DNA of 49,279 bases from Patescibacteria group bacterium UBA6017 (GCA_002429485.1 DIZX01000012.1:1440-50718); one strand, 5' to 3'. Shown: positions 28,223 through 49,279, numbered from the stretch's first letter. Numbers and translations are program-made. The notes: generated by a model from the sequence alone, not told the origin.

Positions 28223-28298
28223 AGGGGTGTAGCTCAGTTGGTAGAGCATCGGTCTCCAAAACCGAGTGTCGTAGGTTCGAGTCCTGCCACCCCTGCCA
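28223..28298 (+). tRNA. tRNA-Trp (anticodon CCA), CCA encoded
   Basis: Acceptor AGGGGTG/CACCCCT, anticodon stem TCGGT/ACCGA with loop CTCCAAA, T arm GTAGG-TTCGAGT-CCTGC, discriminator G. Confidence 0.92.
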
Positions 28299-28391: not shown

Positions 28392-28410
28392 GTTTGAGTC
28401 CTGTTACCCC
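28392..28410 (+). repeat. decayed direct copy of the tRNA-Trp T-loop/acceptor 3' segment
   Basis: GTTTGAGTCCTGTTACCCC against tRNA 28275-28293 GTTCGAGTCCTGCCACCCC is 16/19 identical. All three mismatches are C to T. It lies 94 nt after the tRNA. Confidence 0.6.
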
Positions 28411-28694
28411 ATTACCGAATTTTCTACACATTCTCACATGCAACAACATCTTCACTGACATCTTCGGAAAGCATTGCCTTATATATTGTGGTCGTCTACG
28501 ATATAGACACAACATAACAGTCATTCACCGAAGTTACCGGGCAAGTAGGGCGTAATTCCCTCGCTGTCGCGCAACTGTAAAGTCAGAAAACCGGTCGGGA
28601 ATGTTTTATCCATGTACTCTTCGCCGTAAAGAGTGACGGAAGGCTTCAAACCCCTCTGCGCTAGAACGACCGCTAGTACAAAGAGGGGATTTGT

Positions 28695-31067
28695 TTGTCC
28701 AGAGAAACCGAATCTGATTCAAGATTACAGGAACGCGAGGGAACTGCTAACCTCGATACTGATGTTGAGGCCAATTTTGTTGGTGATCCTGATGACCCCG
28801 AGTCTCAGGAGTCGGTAGGAAGCATCCCTGGGGAAGAGTTTGACGTGGACTCCACTGGATCGCTATTGGACTTCGAAAGCCTGCCAACCGAAACAGAACA
28901 GGGCGAGGTTTCGTTCTCGCAACGCTACGTTTTGCGCGATGGAGGGGCCTATCCGATCGATGCCAGCCAAGAAGATGGTACCAACCCCGACGTACCAATG
29001 AGCCAAGGCTTAGAGGGGGTACAGTTAGAGGAGCACCTAGCGGCCCTTGAGGCTGTCAGTGTGGGGGGATCACCTACTACTGAGATTCGGGGCCTCGAGG
29101 GGCACACCGAAACTACCGAGCTATTCATTGTCTCGACCTACGTCAAGGTAGGTGAAACCGCCGAAGGGGAACCAATTATCGAAATTACCGGCTCGTTCGA
29201 ACATCGCGAGATCGAAGTATTAGATAAAGAAGTCGACGAGGCGGAAGACGCTGGTGACGACTATACCGATGAAGACCAAATGCTGAGCGTTGACGGATCT
29301 AGTGACTTCACCGATTACGACGGACATCCTGAGGTTTACGGCGATGACGGCGACGACGAATACGCCGACGAACCGCCAGCCTGGTCGCCCTATGCCGCTC
29401 CTCAGCCTGATCTTGTCAGGATTGAGCCTATGGTAGCTTCCTTGCCAGCCGAGACTCCCATACTATCGGTTCAGGAGAATCAACCCACGGTCGAATCAGT
29501 AGCCCCGTCAAAGCCAACGATAGCTACGAAACCGCAAGTTACTGGCTTAAGTAGCGCCCTGCGGGAACCACAAACTCCAAATCCGCAATTCACTGCTGAG
29601 CGGAGGGATCAAAAAATCGGCGCTGATAATTCCGCTAGCCCCGTGCAAAATCCCGACAATCCAACCGGAGGCGGAAAATTTAACATGGAGCCAACAGTGA
29701 TGATAGCCCCGTTTGCAACTAGGCCGCTATCAAATGAAACAACTACATTTACGCCCGCTGAGCAGCCTCGAGTCTTGCAGGGCGAACCCCACCCACCCTC
29801 GACATCCAACGAGGCGGCTGGCACGATTGATCATCACGAGACTCGGAGTGTGTATTCATCAGTCGCACCGAGCCATGAGAACGTCCCCGGCCAATCATTA
29901 GTTGAGCCGAGCTCCTCCACCTCTACGAACCTCAGGCCAATCGAGTCGACTACTCCCCGACCAGTGAAAGTAGTGCAGACGGAATCACGTTCAGTTATAG
30001 CCAGTTCAGAATCTGATAAATCAGCTCCGAGTCAGCAATTTGAATCTCACCAAAGCTTGCATGATCTTGTGGCTGAAGCAGTCGTCGGCAGTTTGGATCA
30101 AGCCCAGAGCGCACCGCAGATTGACGCTGGCACCGCTGAGCAACCCCTTCAGCTTGAAACTCAAGATGAAGTTTTCGATGAGCCAGCCACCCATCAAGAT
30201 GTTCTAGATACACCTGTTTTGGTCCATACCAGCCTACCTCTTGCGCCACCCTCCGATTTGGTGCAGCAGATATTTAATCGCGAGGTTGGTGGGGTAGAAT
30301 CTGCTCGAACTCTAATAGTTGAACCTATAGTTACCAATGAGGGTATTTTTGCGGTGGAGCACACTCCAAATCAAGCAGCTGTCGAAAGAGTACTCATAAA
30401 GTCAAACGAAGTCGCGCAACTGCGCCCAGTGTCCTTGGAGTCCGCTCATACCAACCCGCCCGTTGCCCCGGAAGCTTCAGTAGCAAAGCCTGTCCGTGAA
30501 GTTCGATCCACTGTGCGCCACGAACAAGCTGTGCCAGTACCCGCTTCGCCTCGAGCCCAATTGGTTGAACCAACCCCAGCATTCACGCACACCGAGCCAT
30601 CGCGCACCGTTGAGCCCTCACGTAGGGTCGCAGCCGAGCCCAGAGTTGAAGCCGTCGAATCACAACCTGCCCTAGTGGCAAAGCCGATATCAAGACACAC
30701 ACCGGAACTCTCTAATACGTTAGCGCCACATGTAATCAATGAACCCAATCACAAGTCTGAGGCCAAGCCAACATCCGAGCCTGACCGAGCAGTTGCTCCC
30801 TCCCCCAATGCTCCAGCTAAGACAATGGAACAACCAGTAACCTCTTGGCTGGAAGACTTCACCGTCCAGCCTACTCATGAGTCTTCTGACGACGGGCGCG
30901 CCGCCATTATTTGGCCCAAACTTTCAACCTCCGAAGCGGTAGCGCCCGCAAGAGCACAGGGTGGGTATAGTCAATTAACTGATGAAGACCTGGAGGTCTC
31001 CTTTGAGGTTGGTCAGCCGACCGGGCGTAAACGCCCGGCGCACAGGACTAGGACGGCAGCTGTATGA
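28695..31067 (+). CDS. 790-aa acidic, Pro/Ser/Thr/Glu/Val-rich low-complexity protein (predicted largely disordered)
   Basis: TTG start 6 nt after AAGAGGGGA. No signal peptide or TM segment. The D/E-rich N-terminal third has runs such as DDGDDEYADE. The long PSTQ-rich remainder shows no recognisable domain. Confidence 0.7.
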   Translation: MSRETESDSRLQEREGTANLDTDVEANFVGDPDDPESQESVGSIPGEEFDVDSTGSLLDFESLPTETEQGEVSFSQRYVLRDGGAYPIDASQEDGTNPDVPMSQGLEGVQLEEHLAALEAVSVGGSPTTEIRGLEGHTETTELFIVSTYVKVGETAEGEPIIEITGSFEHREIEVLDKEVDEAEDAGDDYTDEDQMLSVDGSSDFTDYDGHPEVYGDDGDDEYADEPPAWSPYAAPQPDLVRIEPMVASLPAETPILSVQENQPTVESVAPSKPTIATKPQVTGLSSALREPQTPNPQFTAERRDQKIGADNSASPVQNPDNPTGGGKFNMEPTVMIAPFATRPLSNETTTFTPAEQPRVLQGEPHPPSTSNEAAGTIDHHETRSVYSSVAPSHENVPGQSLVEPSSSTSTNLRPIESTTPRPVKVVQTESRSVIASSESDKSAPSQQFESHQSLHDLVAEAVVGSLDQAQSAPQIDAGTAEQPLQLETQDEVFDEPATHQDVLDTPVLVHTSLPLAPPSDLVQQIFNREVGGVESARTLIVEPIVTNEGIFAVEHTPNQAAVERVLIKSNEVAQLRPVSLESAHTNPPVAPEASVAKPVREVRSTVRHEQAVPVPASPRAQLVEPTPAFTHTEPSRTVEPSRRVAAEPRVEAVESQPALVAKPISRHTPELSNTLAPHVINEPNHKSEAKPTSEPDRAVAPSPNAPAKTMEQPVTSWLEDFTVQPTHESSDDGRAAIIWPKLSTSEAVAPARAQGGYSQLTDEDLEVSFEVGQPTGRKRPAHRTRTAAV

Positions 31068-32803: not shown

Positions 32804-33219
32804 ATCATCAACTAGGCGAATTACAGCACCAAGTCGAAATTTCTCGTCCCGAGGAATTGGTTCTTGTGAGCACAGAAGGTGTCACGGTCTCTATAGTTAG
32901 CGAATCTATGGAAACTCAGCCACCGAGAGACGAAATCCCTGAAGGTACTTCCGTAAAAACAGAGGCCTCGCAGCAGGAATTTGAGAGTGATTCTCTCCCA
33001 GTCACACAATCAGATTGGATGGTGCCCGCGGCCCGTCCGGAAATCCTGGATTGGCCGTTCCTGGATATCCAGAGCCAAGCTAATGACGCCGTAGTCGCCG
33101 CGATCGAAGATGAGTCTGTCGGCGAATTAGCCGCGCCTAATGAACAACCGATTCCAAGGCGTGCAACAACCCGACCCGGGTCCTATGAGCTGGCTGCCAG
33201 CGGGCGGATTGCAGCATGA
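32800..33219 (+). CDS. 139-aa acidic hypothetical protein
   Basis: ATGA overlaps at both ends. E/D/S/Q-rich with no recognisable domain. Confidence 0.6.
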   Translation: MNHQLGELQHQVEISRPEELVLVSTEGVTVSIVSESMETQPPRDEIPEGTSVKTEASQQEFESDSLPVTQSDWMVPAARPEILDWPFLDIQSQANDAVVAAIEDESVGELAAPNEQPIPRRATTRPGSYELAASGRIAA

Positions 33220-35390
33220 AGCTCACCGGACAATATACCTTCATTCGCCTCAAACCTTCGCCCGAGACAATAACCGAGGGAGCGCTGGCGAAGCGCCACT
33301 TTGAGGCCACCAAGTCGCTCATGACCGCCTTTGCCGGATTACTCAACTCTAATCGAACGGCCGCAATTAGTCTCGAATTGGCAGCCAAAGAACAGAGCAT
33401 AAACTTCATTATCGGCTCCCCGGAAGAATGGGTCGAAGAAGTCACTCATCACGTTTATGCCGCCTTACCGGGAAGCGAGTTGGAAGTGCTCGACGAATGG
33501 ACTGTTTTTGATACCCTGGGAGATATAGCTGGGGCAAGTGTTCAGTTTAGCCCGCCAGAAGGGGAGCTGCGCTCAGCTGAGTTTGCTGGCAGTGATCCGC
33601 TCCAACCACTGCTAGAGATATTGCATAGCTTGCCCACCGGTAGCCGTCTGTCCCTTCAGCTCCTTCTGACGGGTGCTTTCGCCAAGGGCACACTCGGGGG
33701 AGCTCTCGCAGGTGCATTTCAAGATGCGGTAACTAGCGGCCTGCGCCAGGTCCTTATCGGACCACCGTCGGACCAAACTGCCACCGACAAACCAAGAAAC
33801 AAGCTCGATGATGCCCCCCTGCTCGCCAACCTGCGCTTAATTGCCCTAGCAAAATCAGAGCCCGAAGCTACGGACATCATCCGACGCGCCACGAGCGCCT
33901 ATCACGGGCTCACCCTGCCGGGCAAAACTAAACTGCGCTACCAAACGCCCCGACATCTCGACCCTTGGCTCAAAACAGCTCTTCTTCGTCAGTCCGATCC
34001 AAAAACCTCCTTCCGGCTCACACCAATGGAAGCCACGAACCTATACCATACGCCGCTCAATGTGCGTTCGTTCCCGAAGTTAGTTTCCATGGAGACAACG
34101 CGCCTGCCCATACCTCAAAACCTCTCCACCCAAGGCATCGTCATAGGCACCGGCGCGCATCGTAGTGGGGGGCAGCCAATTCACCTAGCCCCCGAAGACC
34201 GACTTCGCCACACCTACCTCATAGGCCAAACTGGCACCGGTAAATCCACTCTATTTCAGAACGCCATCCTGCAGGATATGGAAAACGGCGACGGCTGTTG
34301 CTTCATCGATCCGCACGGTGAAGTCATCGATTGGCTGCTGCCCCGGATTCCCGCCAACCGCGCTGCCGACGTTGTCCTGTTCGACCCTGGCGACCCTTCT
34401 GCCATCCTTGGCCTCAACCTTCTCGAGTGGCGTACTCCCCACGAGCGCGATCTGATAATTCAGGAGCTGATAGCGCTGTTCTATAAACTTTTCGACCCCG
34501 CCCGCACGGGCATTATTGGACCTCAATTCGAGCATTGGCTTCGCAACGCTGCGCTGACCATTACCGAACCAGCCGTCCGAGGTACGATTGTTGATATTCC
34601 GCGTCTCTTCACGGATAAAGCCTTTGCGAAGGCTGCCGTTGAACGATCTTCGCACGTCGCCGTCAAAGATTTTTGGAATAATCAAATGGCTGCCACCGCC
34701 GATTTCCACAAGTCCGAGATGCTCAACTATTTCACCTCCAAGTTCGGAAGCTTCCTCGGCAATTCCGTGATGTATCAAATTCTTTCGCAGCGCTCTAGCG
34801 CCTTCGACCTGCGTACCATCATGGACCGCCGCAAAATCCTGCTCGTCAACCTCTCGAAGGGCCGACTTGGCAGCCTCAATGCCCAACTACTGGGTACCCT
34901 CATCGTGACCAAAATTCAGATGGCCGCCATGAGCCGGGCCGACGTCCCGGCCGAAAACCGGCCACCATTCTATGTCTATATCGACGAGTTTCAGAATGTC
35001 GTTACCGATTCGTTCGCCGCTATGCTCTCAGAAGTCCGCAAGTATGGCGTCGGGCTGCACCTGGCGCATCAATACGTCGATCAACTCCCCGACAATATCA
35101 AGCAAGCCGTATTTGGCAATATTGGTACCATCATGGCTTACCGCCTTGGTTCTACTGACGCCAAGTGGCTCAGTGGCCATTTTGCCCCCCTCAGCATCGA
35201 TGACCTCACCAATATCCCGCCCTACCATTACCATATGAGAACCCTTGCCGACGGCCAACTTACCACTCCCTTTACGGTGAAAGCTCCGTATATTGAAACA
35301 ACCCCCCGCCCAGATGTTGAGCAAGCCATCCGCAGCCGTGTTAGAGACTTCGTGGAAAGCACTCATGCCGTTACGAATGCCCCAAAATGA
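33216..35390 (+). CDS. FtsK/HerA-superfamily P-loop ATPase (HerA/DUF87- or TraD/VirD4-like), soluble, with ~330-aa unknown N-terminal domain
   Basis: Walker A LIGQTGTGKST, then CCFIDPHGE, Walker B FYVYIDEFQNV, and VRKYGVGLHLAHQYVDQL...GNIGTIMAYRL, which is typical of the HerA/TraG-D_C type. No TM helices seen. Confidence 0.8.
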   Translation: MKLTGQYTFIRLKPSPETITEGALAKRHFEATKSLMTAFAGLLNSNRTAAISLELAAKEQSINFIIGSPEEWVEEVTHHVYAALPGSELEVLDEWTVFDTLGDIAGASVQFSPPEGELRSAEFAGSDPLQPLLEILHSLPTGSRLSLQLLLTGAFAKGTLGGALAGAFQDAVTSGLRQVLIGPPSDQTATDKPRNKLDDAPLLANLRLIALAKSEPEATDIIRRATSAYHGLTLPGKTKLRYQTPRHLDPWLKTALLRQSDPKTSFRLTPMEATNLYHTPLNVRSFPKLVSMETTRLPIPQNLSTQGIVIGTGAHRSGGQPIHLAPEDRLRHTYLIGQTGTGKSTLFQNAILQDMENGDGCCFIDPHGEVIDWLLPRIPANRAADVVLFDPGDPSAILGLNLLEWRTPHERDLIIQELIALFYKLFDPARTGIIGPQFEHWLRNAALTITEPAVRGTIVDIPRLFTDKAFAKAAVERSSHVAVKDFWNNQMAATADFHKSEMLNYFTSKFGSFLGNSVMYQILSQRSSAFDLRTIMDRRKILLVNLSKGRLGSLNAQLLGTLIVTKIQMAAMSRADVPAENRPPFYVYIDEFQNVVTDSFAAMLSEVRKYGVGLHLAHQYVDQLPDNIKQAVFGNIGTIMAYRLGSTDAKWLSGHFAPLSIDDLTNIPPYHYHMRTLADGQLTTPFTVKAPYIETTPRPDVEQAIRSRVRDFVESTHAVTNAPK

Positions 35391-40886: not shown

Positions 40887-41366
40887 CTACATAAATTTAC
40901 TGATCTTAATAAACTTCAGCATTTCAGTTGCTAAATTAGCTGATTTAACCCTTCTCATAACCTCGCAGCTCGAGCTCTGGGACAAGATGTTGAGGCTTCC
41001 CTCGTATAGAATAGAGCCATCAATGATCGCTAGCTTCCTGTGATGGTTATCGGTAAATAGAACTTGGACGCCAAGCCCCTGCAGTAAACCAATTGCGGTA
41101 GCGGCCTCCGCCGCCATCCGCCGGTCGTGCTCCTTCGGATCACGCGTATTGATTACTATATGAACCCCTCTTTTCGTAAGCCTACGAAATGAGGGGTAAA
41201 GCGCATTCATGCGCTTATGGGTTATAAAAGGGCTTTCGATAATTAACTCACGTTTACACTTAACTAAGTCATTCAAGAATGCTGGGTAAAATGACTGTTC
41301 GTCATATAATCTAGATGTAAGCAGAGGCGTCGGGGTAGAGCGCTTGAAGGGCCGATGGAAGATCAT
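40887..41366 (-). CDS. short single-HKD phospholipase-D-family nuclease (Nuc-like)
   Basis: 159 aa with a perfect HxK(x4)D(x6)GSxN motif: HRKLAIIDGSILYEGSLN. GAGGAG lies 8 nt upstream. ATGA overlap with the upstream small ORF. Confidence 0.85.
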   Translation of the reverse strand: MIFHRPFKRSTPTPLLTSRLYDEQSFYPAFLNDLVKCKRELIIESPFITHKRMNALYPSFRRLTKRGVHIVINTRDPKEHDRRMAAEAATAIGLLQGLGVQVLFTDNHHRKLAIIDGSILYEGSLNILSQSSSCEVMRRVKSANLATEMLKFIKISKFM

Positions 41367-41545
41367 GAGTTTGGCTCCTCATCCTCAAACAGCGCCCGAA
41401 TTTCATCTGGATCACACTCAACGTCATCGTCAAAAGTTTGATTCCCGGACTGCCACCCCTGCCATATGAAACCAAACCCCAAAATGCCCCTCAAAATAGG
41501 GTATTTTGGGGTTTGGTTTTGACCTATGGGTGGCAGGACAATCAA
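41363..41545 (-). CDS. small WQGWQSGNQTFDD-motif ORF, copy 1 (start uncertain)
   Basis: ...GFGFIWQGWQSGNQTFDDDVECDPDEIRALFEDEEPNS*. Its stop overlaps the HKD ATG. The N-terminal part as drawn runs through a 17-bp hairpin. In-frame TTG codons nearer the motif are alternative starts. Confidence 0.45.
   Translation of the reverse strand: MIVLPPIGQNQTPKYPILRGILGFGFIWQGWQSGNQTFDDDVECDPDEIRALFEDEEPNS
41424..41465 (+). repeat. 42-bp core, copy 1
   Basis: TCATCGTCAAAAGTTTGATTCCCGGACTGCCACCCCTGCCAT is identical over 42 nt to 46364-46405. Its last part, CTGCCACCCCTGCCA, equals the tRNA-Trp 3' end. Confidence 0.95.
41469..41519. other. 17-bp perfect hairpin between head-to-head cores
   Basis: AAACCAAACCCCAAAAT (41469-41485), a 17-nt loop, ATTTTGGGGTTTGGTTT (41503-41519). 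A-rich 5' arm and T-rich 3' arm, so it is terminator-like in both directions. Confidence 0.8.
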
Positions 41546-41552
41546 ACTTTTT
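41526..41552 (-). repeat. truncated inverted copy of the core
   Basis: The reverse complement AAAAAGTTTGATTGTCCTGCCACCCAT matches the copy-2 type core AAAAGTTTGATT(ctc)GTCCTGCCACCC with a 3-nt deletion. On the plus strand it encodes ...YGWQDNQTF... Confidence 0.75.
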
Positions 41553-41728
41553 CATTCATCGGCCTCCACAATTTTGAAGTCATCTACCCCCCTGGGGCCA
41601 TGTTTGTTATGCTAAACCTGTTGCCTAACTGGCGTTGGGTACTAAATTCACGCGCTAGTGAGCCTAGCCGATACAGGCCACCACGCAGACTACTAGGAGA
41701 ATTCGATATCAGACATACTCTCAAAAAT

Positions 41729-43534
41729 ATGCTTTCAACATCTATTGCAGTGGCTAGGTCTCTGGTGCAGACTGCTTTACCAGAAAATGGGTCTGAATAT
41801 AAGACATTTTCCATAAAGGAAGTTACTGCGCAAGTGGCGACTCTCCTGATAGTACTGGTCGGCTTCATAACCTTCTCTTCTGGTCTTTCTAACTATTTCG
41901 TTGGTGACGACCAGGGTCAGATCACTACAAACACGCCAGTTCATAGTATTGCCAATATTGGAATGTTCTTTAATGGAGGCACCTTCTACACGGGTCAAGC
42001 GCTGCACCCGCTTGTTGGAGCCTATTATCGCCCGCTCATGACTACGGTTTACTCACTCGTGTACACGTTATTTGGCCCTCAACCGGGGGCATTCCACTTA
42101 GTTCAACTATGCCTACAAATTGCTTGTTCTATAATGCTTTTTCTAGTCTTCAAATACTTTTTTAGACCAAATTTGGCTTTTATCCTCTCGCTTATATTTC
42201 TAGTCCACCCTATAAACAGCCAGGCTGTATTTGCAATCGCTTCCATGCAGGAGCCGTTATTCTTCTTATTCGGAGTAACAGCCCTATGGTCCGCAATTAG
42301 GTTCCGGGGTAAATCCTTATGGTATTTGCTACTAACAGTTTTGCTATTAATCTTGTCGATGCTATCGAAAGAAACGGGTGTTCTATTTTTAGTGATTACC
42401 TTGATATACGTATACCATGCAGACCGAAAGCGCTTCTACCCACTACTGGGGTTATCGGCGCTCCCCACTATCATGTATATAACGCTAAAAATACACGCCG
42501 TAGGAGTCGCAGTTAACCCGCATACCGCTCCGATCGATAACCTTAGTCTGTTGGAGCGAATGATAAATGTCCCATCCATGGTTCTCTTCTACTTTACGAA
42601 GTTTATTTATCCCTTGCCACTCGCTCATAATTACTACTGGGTTTACAAAACAATTACATTCCAGCATGTTATTTTGCCACTCATAGTCGACCTCGTAATT
42701 GCTGCCGGAATCACCTATTTGGCGGTCGTATTGCGAAAAAAGTCACCGAGGCAGCACTTCCCGTTATTCATGTTCTTCGCTATCTGGTTACTTCTAGGCG
42801 TGCTTTTGCATATGCAGATTATCCCTCTCGATGTGACCGTCAGCGAGACTTGGTTCTACTTTTCTATGGCTGGGCTTTTGGGGCTGATCGGCGTGCTACT
42901 GAATGCGTTCATGCCTCGTGTTTCAAAGGGGTGGCCAATCGCAGTCGTTGTCATTGTCATTTGTCTTCTCGGATTTCGGACATGGGAGCGCGGCTTTGAT
43001 TGGAAAGATGTATATTCCCTTGCTTACCGGGATATTGCAGTCTCAAAAGATGATTACGTATCGCTATCAAATATCGCATATGGCTTGGATTCACAAGGTG
43101 AATACTCTCAAGCCAAGCCTTATGTGTTACGCGCTGTTAACATTTATCCATCTTTCAATAACTACAACACGCTCGGAATTACGCTAGCTGGGCTACATGA
43201 CTACCCCGGAGCTAGAGATGCATATTTAAAAGCACTGGGCTATAACTATTATGAGAATATTTTATGCAACTTGGGCCAGATTTTGACGGTATATGGTGAT
43301 TATGATGCGAATAAACGGATACTTGCCGTCGGGCTTCGGACGTACCCAAGGAATAGCTTGTTGTGGTCAGATCTAGCGATCCTAGAATATTCCAACGGCT
43401 ATACCTCCAATGCCAACCTTGCCGTAGCAAAGGCGGTGCAGTACGGTAACCCATACCCGGAAATATACAAAAAAATACTAGGTAATCAGCCTCTTGATCT
43501 AAATATCGACCCTAAGCCTAGTAGGGGATTTTGA
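41729..43534 (+). CDS. GT-C-fold glycosyltransferase (PMT/ArnT/TMTC-like) with C-terminal TPR repeats
   Basis: Polytopic N-terminal domain with an early-loop DD motif (NYFVGDDQGQITTN) and a C-terminal TPR region (YSQAKPYVLRAVNIYP...). The start is uncertain: ATG 41729 or 41600. The track ORF is open from 41438 through the inverted core. Confidence 0.7.
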   Translation: MLSTSIAVARSLVQTALPENGSEYKTFSIKEVTAQVATLLIVLVGFITFSSGLSNYFVGDDQGQITTNTPVHSIANIGMFFNGGTFYTGQALHPLVGAYYRPLMTTVYSLVYTLFGPQPGAFHLVQLCLQIACSIMLFLVFKYFFRPNLAFILSLIFLVHPINSQAVFAIASMQEPLFFLFGVTALWSAIRFRGKSLWYLLLTVLLLILSMLSKETGVLFLVITLIYVYHADRKRFYPLLGLSALPTIMYITLKIHAVGVAVNPHTAPIDNLSLLERMINVPSMVLFYFTKFIYPLPLAHNYYWVYKTITFQHVILPLIVDLVIAAGITYLAVVLRKKSPRQHFPLFMFFAIWLLLGVLLHMQIIPLDVTVSETWFYFSMAGLLGLIGVLLNAFMPRVSKGWPIAVVVIVICLLGFRTWERGFDWKDVYSLAYRDIAVSKDDYVSLSNIAYGLDSQGEYSQAKPYVLRAVNIYPSFNNYNTLGITLAGLHDYPGARDAYLKALGYNYYENILCNLGQILTVYGDYDANKRILAVGLRTYPRNSLLWSDLAILEYSNGYTSNANLAVAKAVQYGNPYPEIYKKILGNQPLDLNIDPKPSRGF

Positions 43535-43635
43535 ATTGAGAATGAATAGCTGGGTTATGCGGGTGAGTAGCTCTTGGTCGTTCATTCGGATACATAGCCT
43601 TGATTAAACGTGCAGGCATCAGAAACCGCATAGTT

Positions 43636-44115
43636 CTATAGAAAATCACTTATCCGAAGAAAGGCTACCATCTCACTCGCAAGTTGTGCTGATTCTAATC
43701 TTCTCATAACCTCGTAGCTTGAGCTCTGGGACAAGATGTTGAGACTACCCTCATATAGAATTTAGCCATCAATAATCGCTAGCTTTCTATGATGGTTACC
43801 CGTGAATAGCACTACGGCTCCAAGCTCTTGAATTAAACCAATTGCGGTAGCGGCTTCAGCCGCCATCCGCCAATCGTGCTCCTTCGGATCTCGTGTATTG
43901 ATTACTATACGAACCCCTCTTTTGGTAAGCCTACGAAATGAGGGGTAAAGCGCATTCATGCGCTTATGGGTTATAAAAGGGCTCTCAATAATTAATTCTC
44001 GCTTACACTTTGCTAAGTCATTCATGAACGCTGGGTAAAATGACCGTTCGTCATATAATTTAGATGTGAGTAGGGGAGTCGGGTCAGGTCGTTTGAAGAG
44101 CTTCTTGAAGATCAT
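43636..44115 (-). pseudogene. HKD/PLD-family nuclease paralog with in-frame TAA inside the HKD motif
   Basis: Same 480-nt length as 40887-41366 and closely similar throughout. Codon 118 (43762-43764) is TAA where copy 1 has TCT (Ser). The frame continues ILYEGSLNILSQSSSYEVMRRLESAQLASEM... to a TAG at 43636. Confidence 0.8.
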
Positions 44116-44261
44116 AAGTTCTGATCCTCATCTTCAAACAGCGCCCGGATTTCGTTTGGATCACACTTAATCTCATCGTCAAAAGTTTGATTCTCGTCCT
44201 GCCACCCCTGCCAGCACTTATTTGAGGCTCTGTAGAGCCTTTTTTGATATACTGATAACAT
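44112..44261 (-). CDS. small WQGWQ-motif ORF, copy 2
   Basis: MLSVYQKRLYRASNKCWQGWQDENQTFDDEIKCDPNEIRALFEDEDQNL*. GGAG lies 9 nt before ATG 44261; ATG 44276 is an alternative. Its stop overlaps the ATG of the HKD pseudogene. Confidence 0.5.
   Translation of the reverse strand: MLSVYQKRLYRASNKCWQGWQDENQTFDDEIKCDPNEIRALFEDEDQNL
44173..44214 (+). repeat. core, copy 2 (closest to tRNA-Trp)
   Basis: TCATCGTCAAAAGTTTGATTCTCGTCCTGCCACCCCTGCCAG. Positions 44191-44214 are 22/24 identical to tRNA-Trp 28276-28299, with a 19-nt exact run at 44196-44214. Confidence 0.95.
44225..44245 (+). terminator. plus-strand intrinsic-terminator-like hairpin 10 nt after core 2
   Basis: AGGCTC-tgta-GAGCCT followed by TTTTT. 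Confidence 0.5.
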
Positions 44262-44315
44262 AGATTCTTTCTCCATGAGTAGATTTCCTATACGTAACTG
44301 GGTAAACTTAGAGCA

Positions 44316-44723
44316 ATGAACAAACCAATCTCTGAGCTTGTCGGTACACAAATCGCCGATATTATATGCGACGAACCATCTAAAAATTGGCTCTTTAAAT
44401 TTGATTCAGGGAGCGAATTTAGAATCGAATCGCTTTGGCGAATTTCAAACGACAAAGAAGTGTTACTTACTGACACAGATCATGAACAGAAATTTGGTCT
44501 TCCAGCACCCGTCAATGCGATGGTCGAGGCCAAACAATTGCTCGGTGGCAAAATCACGAAAGCTTTACTAACGCCCGTTGGTGACGTACACCTAACGTTC
44601 AGTAACGGGAACTGTCTTGAGATCCTCATTTGGTCGGCAGGCTATGAGTCATGGACATTGAATGCTGGCAAAATATTGATAGTTGCTCAAGGTGGTGGGA
44701 CTATAACTCAATTTGGCGAATAG
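44316..44723 (+). CDS. hypothetical protein (135 aa)
   Basis: Clean ORF with a beta-rich looking sequence. No family recognised. It is convergent with small ORF copy 3. Confidence 0.55.
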   Translation: MNKPISELVGTQIADIICDEPSKNWLFKFDSGSEFRIESLWRISNDKEVLLTDTDHEQKFGLPAPVNAMVEAKQLLGGKITKALLTPVGDVHLTFSNGNCLEILIWSAGYESWTLNAGKILIVAQGGGTITQFGE

Positions 44724-44754
44724 GGTCGTTTTAGGTAAGAGCGTATATAACAAA

Positions 44755-44901
44755 CTAATCTCTCTCCTCATCTAGAACTAATTTAATTTCCTCAACGTCA
44801 AAATCAAACTCATCGTCAAATGTTTGATTCCCGGACTGCAGCCCCTGCCAGCACTTATTTAAGGCTCTACGGAGCTTTTTTCGTATCTTAGTATTAGTCA
44901 A
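44755..44901 (-). CDS. small WQGWQ-motif ORF, copy 3 (degenerate, no downstream partner)
   Basis: Manual translation from TTG 44901: (M)TNTKIRKKLRRALNKCWQGLQSGNQTFDDEFDFDVEEIKLVLDEERD*. W to L change in the motif, no RBS and no cargo gene, so it may be a relic. Confidence 0.3.
   Translation of the reverse strand: MTNTKIRKKLRRALNKCWQGLQSGNQTFDDEFDFDVEEIKLVLDEERD
44810..44851 (+). repeat. core, copy 3 (3 mismatches)
   Basis: TCATCGTCAAATGTTTGATTCCCGGACTGCAGCCCCTGCCAG. It shares about 30 further nt of right flank (GCACTTATTT.AGGCTCT..GAGC.TTTTT) with copy 2. Confidence 0.9.
44862..44881 (+). terminator. weak plus-strand terminator-like hairpin after core 3
   Basis: GCTC-tacg-GAGC plus TTTTTT. 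It is homologous to the hairpin after core 2. Confidence 0.35.
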
Positions 44902-44910
44902 CTTGATACG

Positions 44911-45504
44911 TTGTCAAAATTAGAGCGTGTCTTGCCAAATGAGGCATATCCTGGTAATATAGGTCAATTCGTTCAAAGAATGCGTTTATCGGTGCGCCTC
45001 ACCGATCGGACCCAAGGAGTGGCTATGCAGATCAGCGTAGATACACAAGGTATTGAAGACTTCCTCGCGAAGAACGGGGACACCAACCGCGACGATTATG
45101 ACTACCGGACGCCAATGACGGTCGTCACGCCGGCGCATGTCTTCGCTCGCAAGCTCGTACAGGCTGCTACTACCGCCATCACCCAGCTCGGAGCGCTGAG
45201 CGTCTATATCGAGTCAGTTGAGCTCTTCTTCGCGCCGGAGCACCTCCGGAAATCGTTCAGCCCACGTTTCAAGCTCACCGTCACGATCCCTCGCACGACC
45301 CAGACTCTGACGGTCTTCGGTCCCAGCACCTCGAAGTGCTATGCCCTGCCCTATGCCTCGGATCCCTTCCCGGGTCTCGATTTCATCCAGGTGATGGTCG
45401 GGGACGTCCGCCGGGAGCTTCATCGCGAAATCGAGATGCTTCGCGCCAACCTCGACCTGCTCGATGAGCCGCTTGCCTCTCCCAAGCAAGACATCGCCGT
45501 CTAG
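44911..45504 (+). CDS. hypothetical protein (197 aa), visibly more GC-rich than its surroundings
   Basis: TTG start. No recognisable domain. A GC-rich hairpin (CCCCGAC-tcctt-GTCGGGG) follows downstream. Confidence 0.5.
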   Translation: MSKLERVLPNEAYPGNIGQFVQRMRLSVRLTDRTQGVAMQISVDTQGIEDFLAKNGDTNRDDYDYRTPMTVVTPAHVFARKLVQAATTAITQLGALSVYIESVELFFAPEHLRKSFSPRFKLTVTIPRTTQTLTVFGPSTSKCYALPYASDPFPGLDFIQVMVGDVRRELHREIEMLRANLDLLDEPLASPKQDIAV

Positions 45505-45655
45505 TAACCACAGCGGCGCCGCCCAACTCACCCAACCCCGCCCCTGACGAGAGTCCCCGACTCCTTGTCGGGGGCGATCGTCTTCCCTGGGGTAGGACAT
45601 ATACGACAATCATCTCTTAGGTTCGATACGCTCTACCAAACAAAACCAAACTCAG

Positions 45656-46288
45656 TTATTCAACCGCATCAATAATCTCAAAGTCATTATCGTTGAATAT
45701 AACGGCCTGAGAGTCTTTTAGCTTAATCAGCTTGTCTTGATCGGCCCGCGCTTCTACAGCCACCATTACTTCGTTAAATTCCGCGTTGTCGACGTGCGGT
45801 ATGATCGTGTAGGGCGCGAGTTTCAGTCCCTCTTCGATCACCTCCTCGGCAAATTCGGGCTCGTCCGCCGCTTCTAAGTTAATCCCGCCAAGCGATGCTC
45901 CCGCCACCAATGCGCCGGCGCTATCACCGCCGTACACAATACCGTTTTTCAACAACTCCTGGATAATGGATTCGAACCCGCTTCTACGCATTTCGTATCT
46001 GAGCATGAAGGTATTACCGCCCCCCGCCCAAATAAGGTCGTATCGTGAGAGAGTTTGTTTGAGGGAGGCAGAGTCATCGAACTCTCTCAGATCTACTACC
46101 GTAACCTTCATGCCAAGTGACTCAAAGAGGGCAACGCGTTTGTCGATGATAAAATTTCGCGCGCGATCGGAGTAGTAGTCTTTGGCATTCGGAACAAGCG
46201 CAACGGAAACATCTGCCAAAGGCTTGCCGATGAGTTCGGCAAGGTCATCGGGAGTTGGGATGTCAATCGATGATAGATATAGTTTCAT
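45656..46288 (-). CDS. peptidase S51 family (dipeptidase E-like)
   Basis: I moved the start to ATG 46288 (MKLYLSS...). ...DLIWAGGGNTFMLRYEMR...GIVYGGDSAGALVAG (nucleophile Ser in G-D-S-A-G) and a later ...IIPHVDN His. Confidence 0.8.
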   Translation of the reverse strand: MKLYLSSIDIPTPDDLAELIGKPLADVSVALVPNAKDYYSDRARNFIIDKRVALFESLGMKVTVVDLREFDDSASLKQTLSRYDLIWAGGGNTFMLRYEMRRSGFESIIQELLKNGIVYGGDSAGALVAGASLGGINLEAADEPEFAEEVIEEGLKLAPYTIIPHVDNAEFNEVMVAVEARADQDKLIKLKDSQAVIFNDNDFEIIDAVE

Positions 46289-46290
46289 AA

Positions 46291-46458
46291 TTACCACTTT
46301 ACCCTGTAATCGTCACGATGTTCTAGTACTTCCCTAACATCTTCCACTTCAAAATCCCAATTATCATCGTCAAAAGTTTGATTCCCGGACTGCCACCCCT
46401 GCCATGAAATCATCCGTTTGTCAAGTCGCGTCTTCGGGCGCGATTTTGTTGTGTTCAC
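46291..46458 (-). CDS. small WQGWQ-motif ORF, copy 4
   Basis: Manual translation from GTG 46458 (AAGGAG 5 nt upstream): (M)NTTKSRPKTRLDKRMISWQGWQSGNQTFDDDNWDFEVEDVREVLEHRDDYRVKW*. The stop is 2 nt before the S51 peptidase ATG. It is below the ORF-track cutoff. Confidence 0.5.
   Translation of the reverse strand: MNTTKSRPKTRLDKRMISWQGWQSGNQTFDDDNWDFEVEDVREVLEHRDDYRVKW
46364..46405 (+). repeat. 42-bp core, copy 4
   Basis: Identical to 41424-41465 over exactly 42 nt, with unrelated sequence on both sides. Confidence 0.95.
46426..46450 (+). terminator. plus-strand intrinsic-terminator-like hairpin 21 nt after core 4
   Basis: TCGCGTC-ttcg-GGCGCGA (7 bp including one G-U pair, TTCG tetraloop) followed by TTTTgTT. 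Confidence 0.5.
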
Positions 46459-47475: not shown

Positions 47476-48849
47476 ATGAAGATTACCTCTACCAACCCAT
47501 CCCGGAACTATGAACTCATCGGCGAAATCGAAGTAACGACAGATCAAGACATAAGCGAAGCCGTTACAAGAGCCCGCGCAGTGCAGCCTGCTTGGGCATC
47601 ACTTAGTCAACCCGAGCGAAATGCAGCCGTTGAATCCTTCATCGAGGCATGCAAACCACGTGCCGAAGAAATTGCTATAGCTATGGCCAAAGAAATGGGC
47701 AAGCCGATCTTCCAAGCTCGTGCTCAGATCGCGGAGAGCTTCAACTACTTCCATGCGTATATGGAAATGGCCGAAAAAGCCTTAGCCCCCAAGGTCGTGT
47801 TTGAAAATGATACCGAGGTTCACACCGAAACGCGCGAACCACTCGGTGTTATCGTCTGTATTACTCCCTGGAATTTCCCTTTCCTAAACATCCCATGGCA
47901 GGCAGGTCAATCACTGCTCGCTGGCAATGCCGTGCTATATAAGCCATCGGAAGAAATCATCGTGTTTGCCAGACTCATACAGGAGCTGGTTGCTGCGTCC
48001 AAACTACCCAAAGACATATTCACGGTCATCCTAGGTGACGGTCAGGTTGGAGAGTATCTAGTCCAGCAGCCAGTTGATGCTATTCTCTTCACTGGCAGTA
48101 CGCGCACCGGTCAGCGGATCACAGAGTTAGCCGCAAAAACTTCCACTCGCGTGTTAACGGAAATGGGCGGATCTTCTGCCGGTATCATCTTCGAAGACGC
48201 CGATGTCCCAGCAATAATCAGTACAGTGTATGATATGCGCTTTGATAACACTGGTCAGTACTGCGATGGGCTCAAGAGGCTTTTGGTACACGAAAGCAAA
48301 CTCGAAGAAGTCCTAGCAGCGCTCAGGCAAGTCAATGCAACGAAAAAAGTCGGTGATGCACTAGATGAAGCAACCAACATAGGCCCGCTGGTAGCCAAGC
48401 GCCAACTCGACCTTCTCAAAGCCCAGGTGCAAGATGCGCTCGATAACGGCGCGAAAATTGTATTCGGTGGTAATGAGCCAGAGGGTCTACAAGGTGCATA
48501 CTTTGAGCCCACGGTACTTACTGACATCACATTTGAAATGCGCGTGTGGAAAGAAGAAGTGTTTGGCCCTGTACTACCGGTTGTGACATTCAAAACTGAT
48601 GAAGAGGCCATCCAACTTGCGAATGACACAGTTTATGGCTTGTGCGATTTTGTCTTCACAACAGATAAAGAGCGTTACCGCCGCGTTGCCCATCAGCTTA
48701 AAGCGGGATTAGTCGCCCACAATAATGCGCTGTTCTATAGCCCGCATACCCCGTTTGGTGGCTACAAGAAGTCTGGCAATAGCCGAACTAATGGCATCGA
48801 GGGCTTTCACGAGGTTACCCAGATCAAAATGATAAGCGAGGAGAAGTAA
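47476..48849 (+). CDS. NAD(P)+-dependent aldehyde dehydrogenase
   Basis: 457 aa. ITPWNFPF, FTGSTRTG, catalytic Glu in LTEMGGSSAGIIF, catalytic Cys in NTGQYCDGLKRLLV, and EEVFGPVLPV. Confidence 0.9.
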   Translation: MKITSTNPSRNYELIGEIEVTTDQDISEAVTRARAVQPAWASLSQPERNAAVESFIEACKPRAEEIAIAMAKEMGKPIFQARAQIAESFNYFHAYMEMAEKALAPKVVFENDTEVHTETREPLGVIVCITPWNFPFLNIPWQAGQSLLAGNAVLYKPSEEIIVFARLIQELVAASKLPKDIFTVILGDGQVGEYLVQQPVDAILFTGSTRTGQRITELAAKTSTRVLTEMGGSSAGIIFEDADVPAIISTVYDMRFDNTGQYCDGLKRLLVHESKLEEVLAALRQVNATKKVGDALDEATNIGPLVAKRQLDLLKAQVQDALDNGAKIVFGGNEPEGLQGAYFEPTVLTDITFEMRVWKEEVFGPVLPVVTFKTDEEAIQLANDTVYGLCDFVFTTDKERYRRVAHQLKAGLVAHNNALFYSPHTPFGGYKKSGNSRTNGIEGFHEVTQIKMISEEK

Positions 48850-49279
48850 TGAACCTAATAGACAAAACAGCCCTAATCACCGGTGCAAGCGACGGAATCG
48901 GCAAAAGCATCGCTCTCCAGCTTGCAAAACAAAAAGCCAGCCTGATACTATTCGGCCGCGACGAAACCAAACTTGGCGACGTAGCACGCCAGTGCGAAGA
49001 CGAGGGTGCGAAAGTTAGTACCTATGCTTTTGATATCACAGATAGCACTAAACTCGATCAGGTAGTTAATGAGGTCTTACAAACGCATTCTGTGGATGCA
49101 CTTATAAACTGTGCTGGTATCTGGCATAAAGTTGGTGATCTTACTACCATTACACCCGAAAAGGTCCAGGAGGTGATCAGTACAAATCTTACAGCGCATA
49201 TATTGCTAACTCAAAGCTTGTTACCGAGCATGCGCGAACGTGAGACGGCTATTATAAATATTATCTCCAAATCAGGAAT
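48849..49279 (+). CDS. short-chain dehydrogenase/reductase (partial, runs off the right edge)
   Basis: MNLIDKTALITGASDGIGKSIA (TGxxxGxG) ...NCAGI... TAATG overlap with the aldehyde dehydrogenase stop. Confidence 0.85.
   Translation, partial: MNLIDKTALITGASDGIGKSIALQLAKQKASLILFGRDETKLGDVARQCEDEGAKVSTYAFDITDSTKLDQVVNEVLQTHSVDALINCAGIWHKVGDLTTITPEKVQEVISTNLTAHILLTQSLLPSMRERETAIINIISKSG

Follow-up and report, generated by a model that had tools for sequence, protein, structure and literature searches.

A tRNA 3' end fused to a microprotein-coding block as a candidate attachment site for small cassettes in Patescibacteria

We analysed a 49,279-nt stretch of DNA from Patescibacteria group bacterium UBA6017 (GCA_002429485.1 DIZX01000012.1:1440-50718), here called the window, which is part of JGI contig Ga0120146_1000001. 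It carries an intact tRNA-Trp gene and, further downstream, an island of short gene cassettes in which a 42-bp core recurs. When the 41-mer of core copy 1 was searched with up to three mismatches allowed, exactly four matches were found in the window, all on the plus strand, against an expectation of 0 from 100 shuffles. A repeat search also recovered this 42-nt family and put the identity of copies 1 and 4 at 100%. The identity of these two copies over 42 nt and the three mismatches in each of copies 2 and 3, as given in the original prediction made from the sequence alone, were thus reproduced. Each core ends in the 3' end of a tRNA and is overlapped on the opposite strand by a small acidic open reading frame (ORF), and we propose, with a probability of roughly 0.68, that it is the attachment (att) site of small integrative cassettes that target the 3' ends of tRNA-Trp or tRNA-Gln genes. 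The features on which this argument depends are as follows.

28223-28298, plus strand: intact tRNA-Trp(CCA) gene (ARAGORN, Rfam)
28393-28411, plus strand: degenerate repeat of the tRNA-Trp T-loop-to-acceptor segment, GTTTGAGTCCTGTTACCCC (16/19; local alignment, empirical p ~0.006)
41363-41482, minus strand: small acidic ORF 1, 39 aa, TTG start, MGFGFIWQGWQSGNQTFDDDVECDPDEIRALFEDEEPNS; stop codon overlapping the start of an HKD nuclease gene (ATGA); homologue P0008 in locus L027
41424-41465 (41-mer match 41424-41464), plus strand: core copy 1, 0 mismatches; arm block TCATCGTCAAAAGTTTGATT at 41424-41443, spacer CCCGGA, tRNA-Trp 3' end CTGCCACCCCTGCCA at 41450-41464
41469-41519, plus strand: long hairpin and T-run after copy 1, terminator-like in the tRNA direction (terminator-like hairpin 41489-41511)
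41519-41551, minus strand: inverted partial core, copy 5, AAAAGTTTGATTGTCCTGCCACCC (profile E=0.09), upstream of a PMT_2/TPR gene
44112-44261, minus strand: small acidic ORF 2, 49 aa, the same as P0001
44173-44214 (41-mer match 44173-44213), plus strand: core copy 2, 3 mismatches
44224-44241, plus strand: terminator-like hairpin after copy 2, GGCTCTGTAGAGCC followed by T6, resembling the hairpin after tRNA-Trp
44755-44901, minus strand: small acidic ORF 3, 48 aa from a TTG start, without a co-directional gene after it
44810-44851 (41-mer match 44810-44850), plus strand: core copy 3, 3 mismatches
44861-44878, plus strand: terminator-like hairpin after copy 3
46291-46458, minus strand: small acidic ORF 4, 55 aa, the same as P0002, GTG start with AAGGAG before it
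46364-46405 (41-mer match 46364-46404), plus strand: core copy 4, 0 mismatches, identical to copy 1
46423-46446, plus strand: terminator-like hairpin after copy 4

The core is composed of two parts. Its left 20 nt are the minus-strand codons of the peptide motif NQTFDD, and its right 15-19 nt correspond to the 3' terminus of the tRNA-Trp gene that the window itself carries. The final 15 nt of all window cores (CTGCCACCCCTGCCA) are the final 15 nt of tRNA-Trp, and the repeated segment, 28280-28298 in the tRNA gene (its final 15-19 nt), has the same orientation there as in all four cores. Copy 2 matches tRNA-Trp at 19/19 positions (GTCCTGCCACCCCTGCCAG), from the T-loop onward, and can be aligned on into the 3' flank of the tRNA gene, including the hairpin GGCTnnnnAGAGCC, with a score of 40 against a shuffle maximum of 27. 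The tRNA-Trp gene first surfaced as an extra match in a six-frame motif scan of the window, and its 3' end was the next-best match in the window to a profile of 18 units, that is, cores with their adjoining arms (E=3e-4). We presume that the tRNA-Trp gene is the primary attachment target (attB/attL). The degenerate repeat of its T-loop-to-acceptor segment lies ~95 nt downstream of the tRNA and is probably a relic of an old integration. A functional tRNA or a tRNA-like fold at the core itself was considered and rejected, as ARAGORN and Rfam find none and the T-stem is unable to pair.

On the plus strand, a hairpin and T-run follow directly on each of the four copies, with a different sequence each time. 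The flank type found after copy 4 (TGAAAT..TTTGTCAAG) also occurs in three loci from other contigs, which we refer to by number (L026, L030 and L032). A conserved TTGACA in the right flank was considered as a -35 box and rejected, as there is no -10 element at a workable spacing.

The flanks of the cores are mosaic, as originally described. Copies 1 and 2 have ~527 nt of left flank in common (86% identity), copies 2 and 3 have ~30-40 nt of right flank in common (an 84-nt repeat family, 82%), and copies 1 and 4 share the core alone at the DNA level. The claim that the flanks are unrelated held for the DNA of copies 1 and 4 but not at the protein level, where copies 1, 3 and 4 have homologous acidic tails (x-D-x-E-[EI]-[IV]-[RK]-x-[LV]-[LF]-[DE]), encoded with different codons in left flanks that seem unrelated. 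Two further copies extend the set. Copy 5 stands head-to-head with copy 1, with the hairpin at 41469-41519 between them, and a sixth half-copy lies ~6.5 kb past the window end (L008 641-680), where it has a copy-4-type right flank and adjoins a third HKD pseudogene. Five direct copies thus lie downstream of tRNA-Trp, the four in the window and the L008 half-copy. Within the long segment between copies 4 and 6, 450 nt of an adh_short gene are duplicated at 92% (L008 3865-4315 versus window 48824-49273).

The same association was found with a different tRNA in a second genome. In L019, which is one contig with L030 (the latter fetched with longer flanks), a family member reads W-L-G-R-Q-F-W-NQTFDDD, and the complement of its W-L-G-R-Q codons, CTGCCGCCCCAGCCA, forms the final 15 nt of a tRNA-Gln(TTG) gene that is intact, lies 2.2 kb away and has the same orientation. 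The identity between unit and tRNA-Gln runs 10-11 nt into the flank (CCA|TG-AATTATT). Three co-oriented units follow this tRNA gene at spacings of ~2.3, 1 and 1 kb, each with an intact small ORF, and the array lies between ClpB and tRNA-Gln with housekeeping genes around it. The 25 nt of tRNA end and flank are identical in all three units despite diverged NQTFDD codons (NQTFDDD, FQTFEDD and NRTFGDD), and therefore the tRNA-derived part is held more tightly than the protein motif. It also tracks the neighbouring tRNA gene.

The small protein family carries a trace of the same two tRNAs. Among 136 family representatives, W occupies position 1 of the motif in 129, position 2 is divided almost wholly between Q (69) and L (59), and position 3 carries G in 114 cases and E in 15. 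The codon pairs CAG-GGG and CTG-GGG are the complements of ..CCCCUGCCA, the tRNA-Trp end, and ..CCCCAGCCA, the tRNA-Gln end, respectively. Bacterial tRNA-Trp ends with the pair A1:U72 and G73, and tRNA-Gln with U1:A72 and G73. Judging from these complementarities, W-[Q/L]-G-x-Q of the small protein would be the complement of a tRNA end.

Co-oriented arrays of units, or of 3' fragments resembling tRNA-Gln or tRNA-Trp, were present in further loci: two in L011, four in L016, five in L028 (where the tRNA-like fragments are decayed), three plus the tRNA gene in L030, and two or three in L032. The window and these loci show the arrangement by which tandem accretion is recognised, at least two co-oriented segments split by partial copies of the target tRNA. 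An all-against-all BLAST comparison placed the start of inter-locus homology exactly at the CCA end of the core (L011 4090 versus L029 6027; L028 6085 versus L031 6723; L028 and L031 each versus window 41464-41467), and the content between conserved blocks differs across genomes (L028/L031 and L011/L029). Independent assortment of flanks, first proposed from the window, also extends between genomes. L026 combines the copy-4 right flank and core (91% over 80 nt) with a different tail and neighbour, and a copy-1-type unit in L027 has the 3' end of an S51 peptidase gene immediately upstream of it, whereas in the window the S51 gene is downstream of copy 4. The original suggestion of a site-specific crossover site or gene-conversion hotspot gains support from the tRNA 3' end in the core, Trp here and Gln in L030, from the CCA breakpoints, from the reassortment of flanks across genomes and from synonymous sites that are frozen in CAAACTTT.

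A scan of a genome collection gave one true match (L007), and a single named genome was found to carry a unit, a Saccharimonadales metagenome-assembled genome (MAG). In viral contigs, two degenerate patterns gave nothing but unrelated matches, a single metagenome scan gave six matches, all by chance, and tblastn against plasmids and phages gave no match.

Every copy falls within an open frame of the minus strand, which reads ..W-Q-G-W-Q-S-G-N-Q-T-F-D-D-[DE] and continues into an acidic tail. These ORFs belong to a family of 40-70 aa acidic proteins, of which a first profile search returned 30 and an exhaustive search 335 clusters (E<=0.001). Q-T-F-D is invariant, and there is little variation in the N or in the E of E-I-R. 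The small protein has no match in Pfam, NCBIfam, PADLOC, PHROGs or PDB, and an AlphaFold monomer model shows only a C-terminal helix, at low confidence (pLDDT 62). In a copy-1-type unit at L027 277-310, an extra G in a G-run shifts the frame before the second Trp (..NGRGWQSGNQTF), with the nucleotides otherwise kept; the frameshift may be real or may come from faulty assembly. Every core also has, on the minus strand, a mini-ORF in the +1 frame (ATG or GTG ... AAC TTT TGA C; 41432-41465, 44181-44218, 44818-44855 and 46372-46405) that ends in a heptamer resembling the +1 frameshift site of RF2. We judge it to be a by-product, as it is lost where Phe is TTC (L015 and L019) and synonymous changes fit the main frame. 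A Trp-codon leader peptide acting by attenuation and a RiPP precursor were likewise rejected, as the downstream genes are too varied and some units have none.

Protein-level conservation had been judged insufficient to explain the core, and this held in part: the synonymous sites of one block are frozen, but the left two thirds of the core are genuinely coding and protein selection contributes. The block in question, CAAACTTT, lies 6 nt from the tRNA part. Among 18 units its Gln codon is CAA in 17/17, its Thr codon ACT in 17/18 and its Phe codon TTT in 16/18, whereas Asn and Asp codons vary freely. The usage of CAA (~0.4-0.7) and ACT (0.15-0.33) in the genome gives a product of roughly 2e-6 over about six lineages, and the block is therefore constrained as DNA or RNA as well. 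We regard it as a putative protein-binding arm of the site. A further argument comes from copies 1 and 4. The Q, W, Q, S and G residues are not fixed in other family members, and the chance that all 12 degenerate codons match between these two copies is ~5e-5 as estimated from codon usage, so that identity at 42/42 positions goes beyond amino-acid constraint alone. Shared ancestry of the site, or homogenisation by exchange at it, would fit.

Small inverted repeats of the arm motif, AAAGTTTGGTT / AACCAAACTTT, are found beside the L030 tRNA-Gln gene (L030 12290-12335), after a 254-aa gene in the same locus (L030 10945-10975) and inside the tail of copy 3 (window 44802-44829). The motif count is above chance in L030 (7 versus 1.8 expected) and marginal in the window (10 versus 4.95), and the motif is possibly a binding site.

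We propose that, read in the tRNA direction, a unit opens with an element arm (TCRTCRTCRAAAGTTTGRTT) and, after a spacer of 6 nt, continues into the final 15-19 nt of the tRNA, the proposed exchange region, and then into a far arm with an intrinsic terminator. The terminator of the far arm would serve the regenerated tRNA, and its presence after the core is expected because the arm beside a regenerated tRNA must provide the tRNA 3' flank; the role of the hairpins as terminators for a regenerated tRNA is accordingly a prediction of the model. Repeated integration at one site would push older cassettes outward, giving the order tRNA, cassette, unit, next cassette. The small ORF would be built across the junction on the opposite strand, with its start and N-terminus from the far arm of one cassette (such as the AAGGAG-GTG of copy 4), W-x-G-x-Q from the tRNA part, and NQTFDD with the acidic helix and tail from the arm of the neighbouring cassette. 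Left and right flanks would assort independently, with breakpoints at both block edges, because the unit straddles a cassette junction. The recombinase would be encoded elsewhere and act in trans. The unit anatomy, the tRNA identity in two genomes, the arrays in several loci, the CCA breakpoints and the frozen synonymous sites are established, and we infer that exchange is site-specific and catalysed by a recombinase.

Several observations weigh against this proposal. For all loci examined (~150 kb in total, including +-10 kb around the L030 array), neither the gene tables nor the Pfam tables contained a tyrosine or serine recombinase. Five assemblies of the window's species are collinear at 99.6-100% identity with no excision or rearrangement, and none at the cores in L008, L009, L010, L036 or L037, so that the strain-level rearrangement that the original prediction had proposed to look for was not seen and ongoing rearrangement is not shown; nor was a circular or empty-site form found. 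Co-variation of unit and tRNA was demonstrated directly in two genomes only, with tRNA-Trp in the window and tRNA-Gln in L030. In both the intact tRNA is co-oriented with the array, and the other loci contain no tRNA gene within the parts fetched. The distance to the first unit is 2.2 kb in L030, but the window tRNA-Trp lies 13 kb upstream of copy 1, with ordinary-looking genes filling the gap and no further tRNA fragments found in it. Finally, variation among units is concentrated at third codon positions, and the Arg of EIR is encoded by CGG, CGT, CGA or AGG. The small-ORF frame is therefore clearly under protein-level selection, and part of the conservation of the core stems from this selection rather than from recombination.

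Two contig ends fall at the repeats in other assemblies of the same population: L038 ends at the copy-1 hairpin (window 41519), and L010 ends at 44168, 5 nt from copy 2. Such ends are expected from the assembly of repeats, and population heterogeneity at the sites would also fit.

These points raise the question of whether the cores are simply parts of paralogous small-protein genes, with the core as their invariant motif, gene conversion over short tracts or homologous recombination among the paralogues as the cause of the identity of copies 1 and 4 and of the reshuffled flanks, a tRNA part that is at most fossil, and no site-specific recombination today. The protein family is certainly real, its 335 clusters keeping Q-T-F-D invariant and retaining an EIRxLL tail with varying codons, and the missing nearby recombinase, the stable strains and the decayed tRNA-like fragments of L028 are what such a history would leave. 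We nevertheless consider this explanation unlikely, since it leaves unexplained why the W-x-G-x-Q part matches a tRNA gene of the same locus in two genomes, why the tRNA part is better conserved than NQTFDD in L030, why Q and L alone alternate at position 2, why breakpoints fall exactly at CCA and why every copy is followed by a terminator oriented as for the tRNA.

A second possibility is that the cores are integron-like attC sites, or terminal inverted repeats of transposons or miniature inverted-repeat transposable elements (MITEs), with AAAGTTTGRTT / AAYCAAACTTT as the recognised ends, on which the linked HKD nuclease possibly acts. Copy 1 with copy 5, and the L027 unit, do form imperfect palindromes of 125-130 nt with outer ends AAAAGTTTGATT / AATCAAACTTTT, AAAGTTTGG hairpins recur beside the L030 tRNA-Gln gene and after its 254-aa gene, and HKD genes or remnants follow ~8/20 units. 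Copies 2, 3 and 4, however, lack an inverted partner, genes lie on both strands, and neither intI nor a transposase is present. GTTTGAT also misses the integron consensus GTTRRRY, the motif counts in the window are barely above chance, and we know of no HKD enzyme that acts as a recombinase. Such a system is therefore quite improbable. A role at the RNA level would have the minus-strand mRNA bind uncharged tRNA-Trp or tRNA-Gln by pairing with the tRNA's 3' terminus, in the manner of a primer-binding site or T-box, or would have a plus-strand antisense RNA that ends at the terminator control the small ORF. Such a role would draw on the 15-19 nt of complementarity and on the plus-strand terminator after each core, but is scarcely credible given that there is no reverse transcriptase, T-box or consistent plus-strand promoter, that Rfam finds nothing at the core, and that direct-repeat arrays beside an intact tRNA would go unexplained.

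The att-site proposal also bears on the genes between the units, which in the window are as follows.

40887-41366, minus strand: single-domain HKD (PLD-like) nuclease, 159 aa (Pfam PLDc_2, E=2.5e-10; PADLOC MkoC, MkoB and DrmC PLD domains)
41615-43534, plus strand: PMT_2-type glycosyltransferase with TPR repeats (Pfam)
43762-44115, minus strand: HKD paralogue, a pseudogene with a premature stop, 86% identical to the copy-1 cassette
44316-44723, plus strand: DUF6188 protein (Pfam)
44911-45504, plus strand: 197-aa ORF without a family match in any library, 62% GC within an island of 41-46% GC
45656-46297, minus strand: Peptidase_S51 (PepE/cyanophycinase-like), ATG 2 nt past the stop of small ORF 4

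The GC content of the island, 41-46% with a patch of 62%, compares with 53% for the window, and the 197-aa ORF is likely a recently acquired foreign cassette. The HKD set of the island comprises one nuclease and two pseudogenes. In other loci the cargo includes PDC-S54 (E=7e-121), a viperin-like radical SAM protein, an N6_N4 methylase and APH, together with the toxin-antitoxin-type genes ParE/RHH, ParE/Phd and Fic; one further cargo gene was read as Mrr-like by eye from its translation alone, without a family search. Overall, the cargo consists mostly of nucleases, defence candidates and toxin-antitoxin genes.

HKD genes are the most frequent partner of the small ORF. They or their remnants follow ~8/20 units, in both tail subfamilies, and the stop of the small ORF overlaps the HKD start (ATGA for copies 1 and 2, an 8-nt overlap in L011 and L029). 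The pair of small ORF and HKD gene therefore looks ancestral. Uncalled HKD remnants, 72-78% identical to the window HKD cassettes, follow the small ORFs P0024 and P0029 (L028 6208-6595 and L031 6840-7092), and a cassette of small ORF and HKD gene is therefore widespread and often decayed. We infer that the small protein may be a cassette-borne partner of the HKD nuclease, the gene it most often precedes, and possibly antitoxin-like.

A broader version of the att-site proposal, which we hold to be rather doubtful, is an integron-like capture platform in Patescibacteria, in which mini-cassettes of defence and toxin genes would enter, leave and change order at a site made up half of a tRNA 3' end and half of microprotein codons. 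Such a platform would use an unlinked recombinase or one of a new kind, for which the recurrently linked single-HKD enzyme is the obvious candidate, and the microprotein assembled at the junction could be a directionality, immunity or sensing factor.

Among the genes in the 13-kb stretch between tRNA-Trp and copy 1 are a 790-aa ORF led by a riboswitch, genes for a ClpB-like ATPase and a weakly TraG/TrwB-like protein, and GlutR-like and ApbE genes. Directly downstream of tRNA-Trp, an AdoCbl-II riboswitch (28525-28601) precedes the 790-aa ORF (28695-31067), which has no Pfam match at E<=0.001 and appears to be a B12-controlled gene of an unfamiliar family. A 724-aa ORF (33216-35390), between tRNA-Trp and the cassette array, has weak matches to TrwB/TraG, a type IV coupling protein, and could be the mark of an old conjugative element.

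Saccharibacteria and similar candidate-phyla bacteria have tiny genomes in which few mobile elements have been described, and the routes by which they acquire defence genes are little understood. The architecture described here, cassettes of 0.6-3 kb with a tRNA-derived site, recurs in several unrelated metagenomic contigs, of which one comes from a Saccharimonadales MAG, and goes together with a microprotein family (335 clusters) that has no name in any database. Its signature, ..AAAGTTTGRTT-N6-tRNA 3' end, can serve as a marker for such islands. If the site is active, it would provide a testable route of gene flux in candidate-phyla bacteria and a compact att site perhaps usable for engineering them, and a recombination site and a protein-coding motif would be one and the same DNA.

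Our literature search found no description of such a cassette or att system in Saccharibacteria or Patescibacteria, and several known systems resemble parts of it. Like type II toxin-antitoxin modules, the cassettes place a small, acidic, largely disordered protein just upstream of a putatively toxic nuclease, with the gene overlap of a translationally coupled pair, and orphan copies occur. Unlike an antitoxin, the small protein has no recognisable DNA-binding domain, its most conserved part is N-terminal rather than at the toxin-binding end, and many copies of its gene have other downstream genes or none. Integrons offer a similar array of short cassettes split by a repeated recombination site, with an order that is reassorted between genomes. 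In contrast to integrons, no locus here contains intI or attI, the sites are tRNA-derived rather than attC hairpins, and genes lie on both strands. With respect to the attC consensus (RYYYAAC / GTTRRRY), the palindromic cases are limited to copy 1, taken together with copy 5, and the unit of L027, and ATCAAAC / GTTTGAT are one base off.

Closer parallels come from elements that accumulate at tRNA genes. The cis-mobilisable elements (CIMEs) of streptococci are tandem accretion arrays, and the tycheposon islands of Prochlorococcus contain tandem elements split by partial tRNAs (bioRxiv 10.1101/2020.12.28.424599). As in both, neighbouring elements here have nothing but partial tRNA copies between them, in islands filled with degraded integrase-less remnants and scattered partial tRNAs. 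Tycheposons differ in that at least some copies carry a tyrosine recombinase and replication genes, of which we saw none, and the junction-spanning microprotein and conserved arm block found here have no counterpart described in either system. More generally, tRNA-targeting islands regenerate the tRNA and leave the displaced 3' fragment at the far end (PMC4383910). Islands and prophages of this kind that use tyrosine integrases, as defined by Islander/TIGER, are bounded by a direct repeat of the tRNA 3' end, and the cassettes described here have such bounds. They also resemble those islands in having an intact tRNA at one end (L030), in carrying accessory and defence cargo and, by the model, in providing a new tRNA 3' flank. 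They differ in that no array has an integrase gene within it or close by, in the very small size of the cassettes (0.6-3 kb), in the 13 kb between tRNA and array in the window, and in the conserved protein-coding gene that runs across the att site. By this comparison, the logic of the system would be that of tRNA-targeting islands, and what appears to be new is a set of tiny cassettes with no linked integrase, whose arm doubles as the invariant motif of a microprotein that spans the junction.

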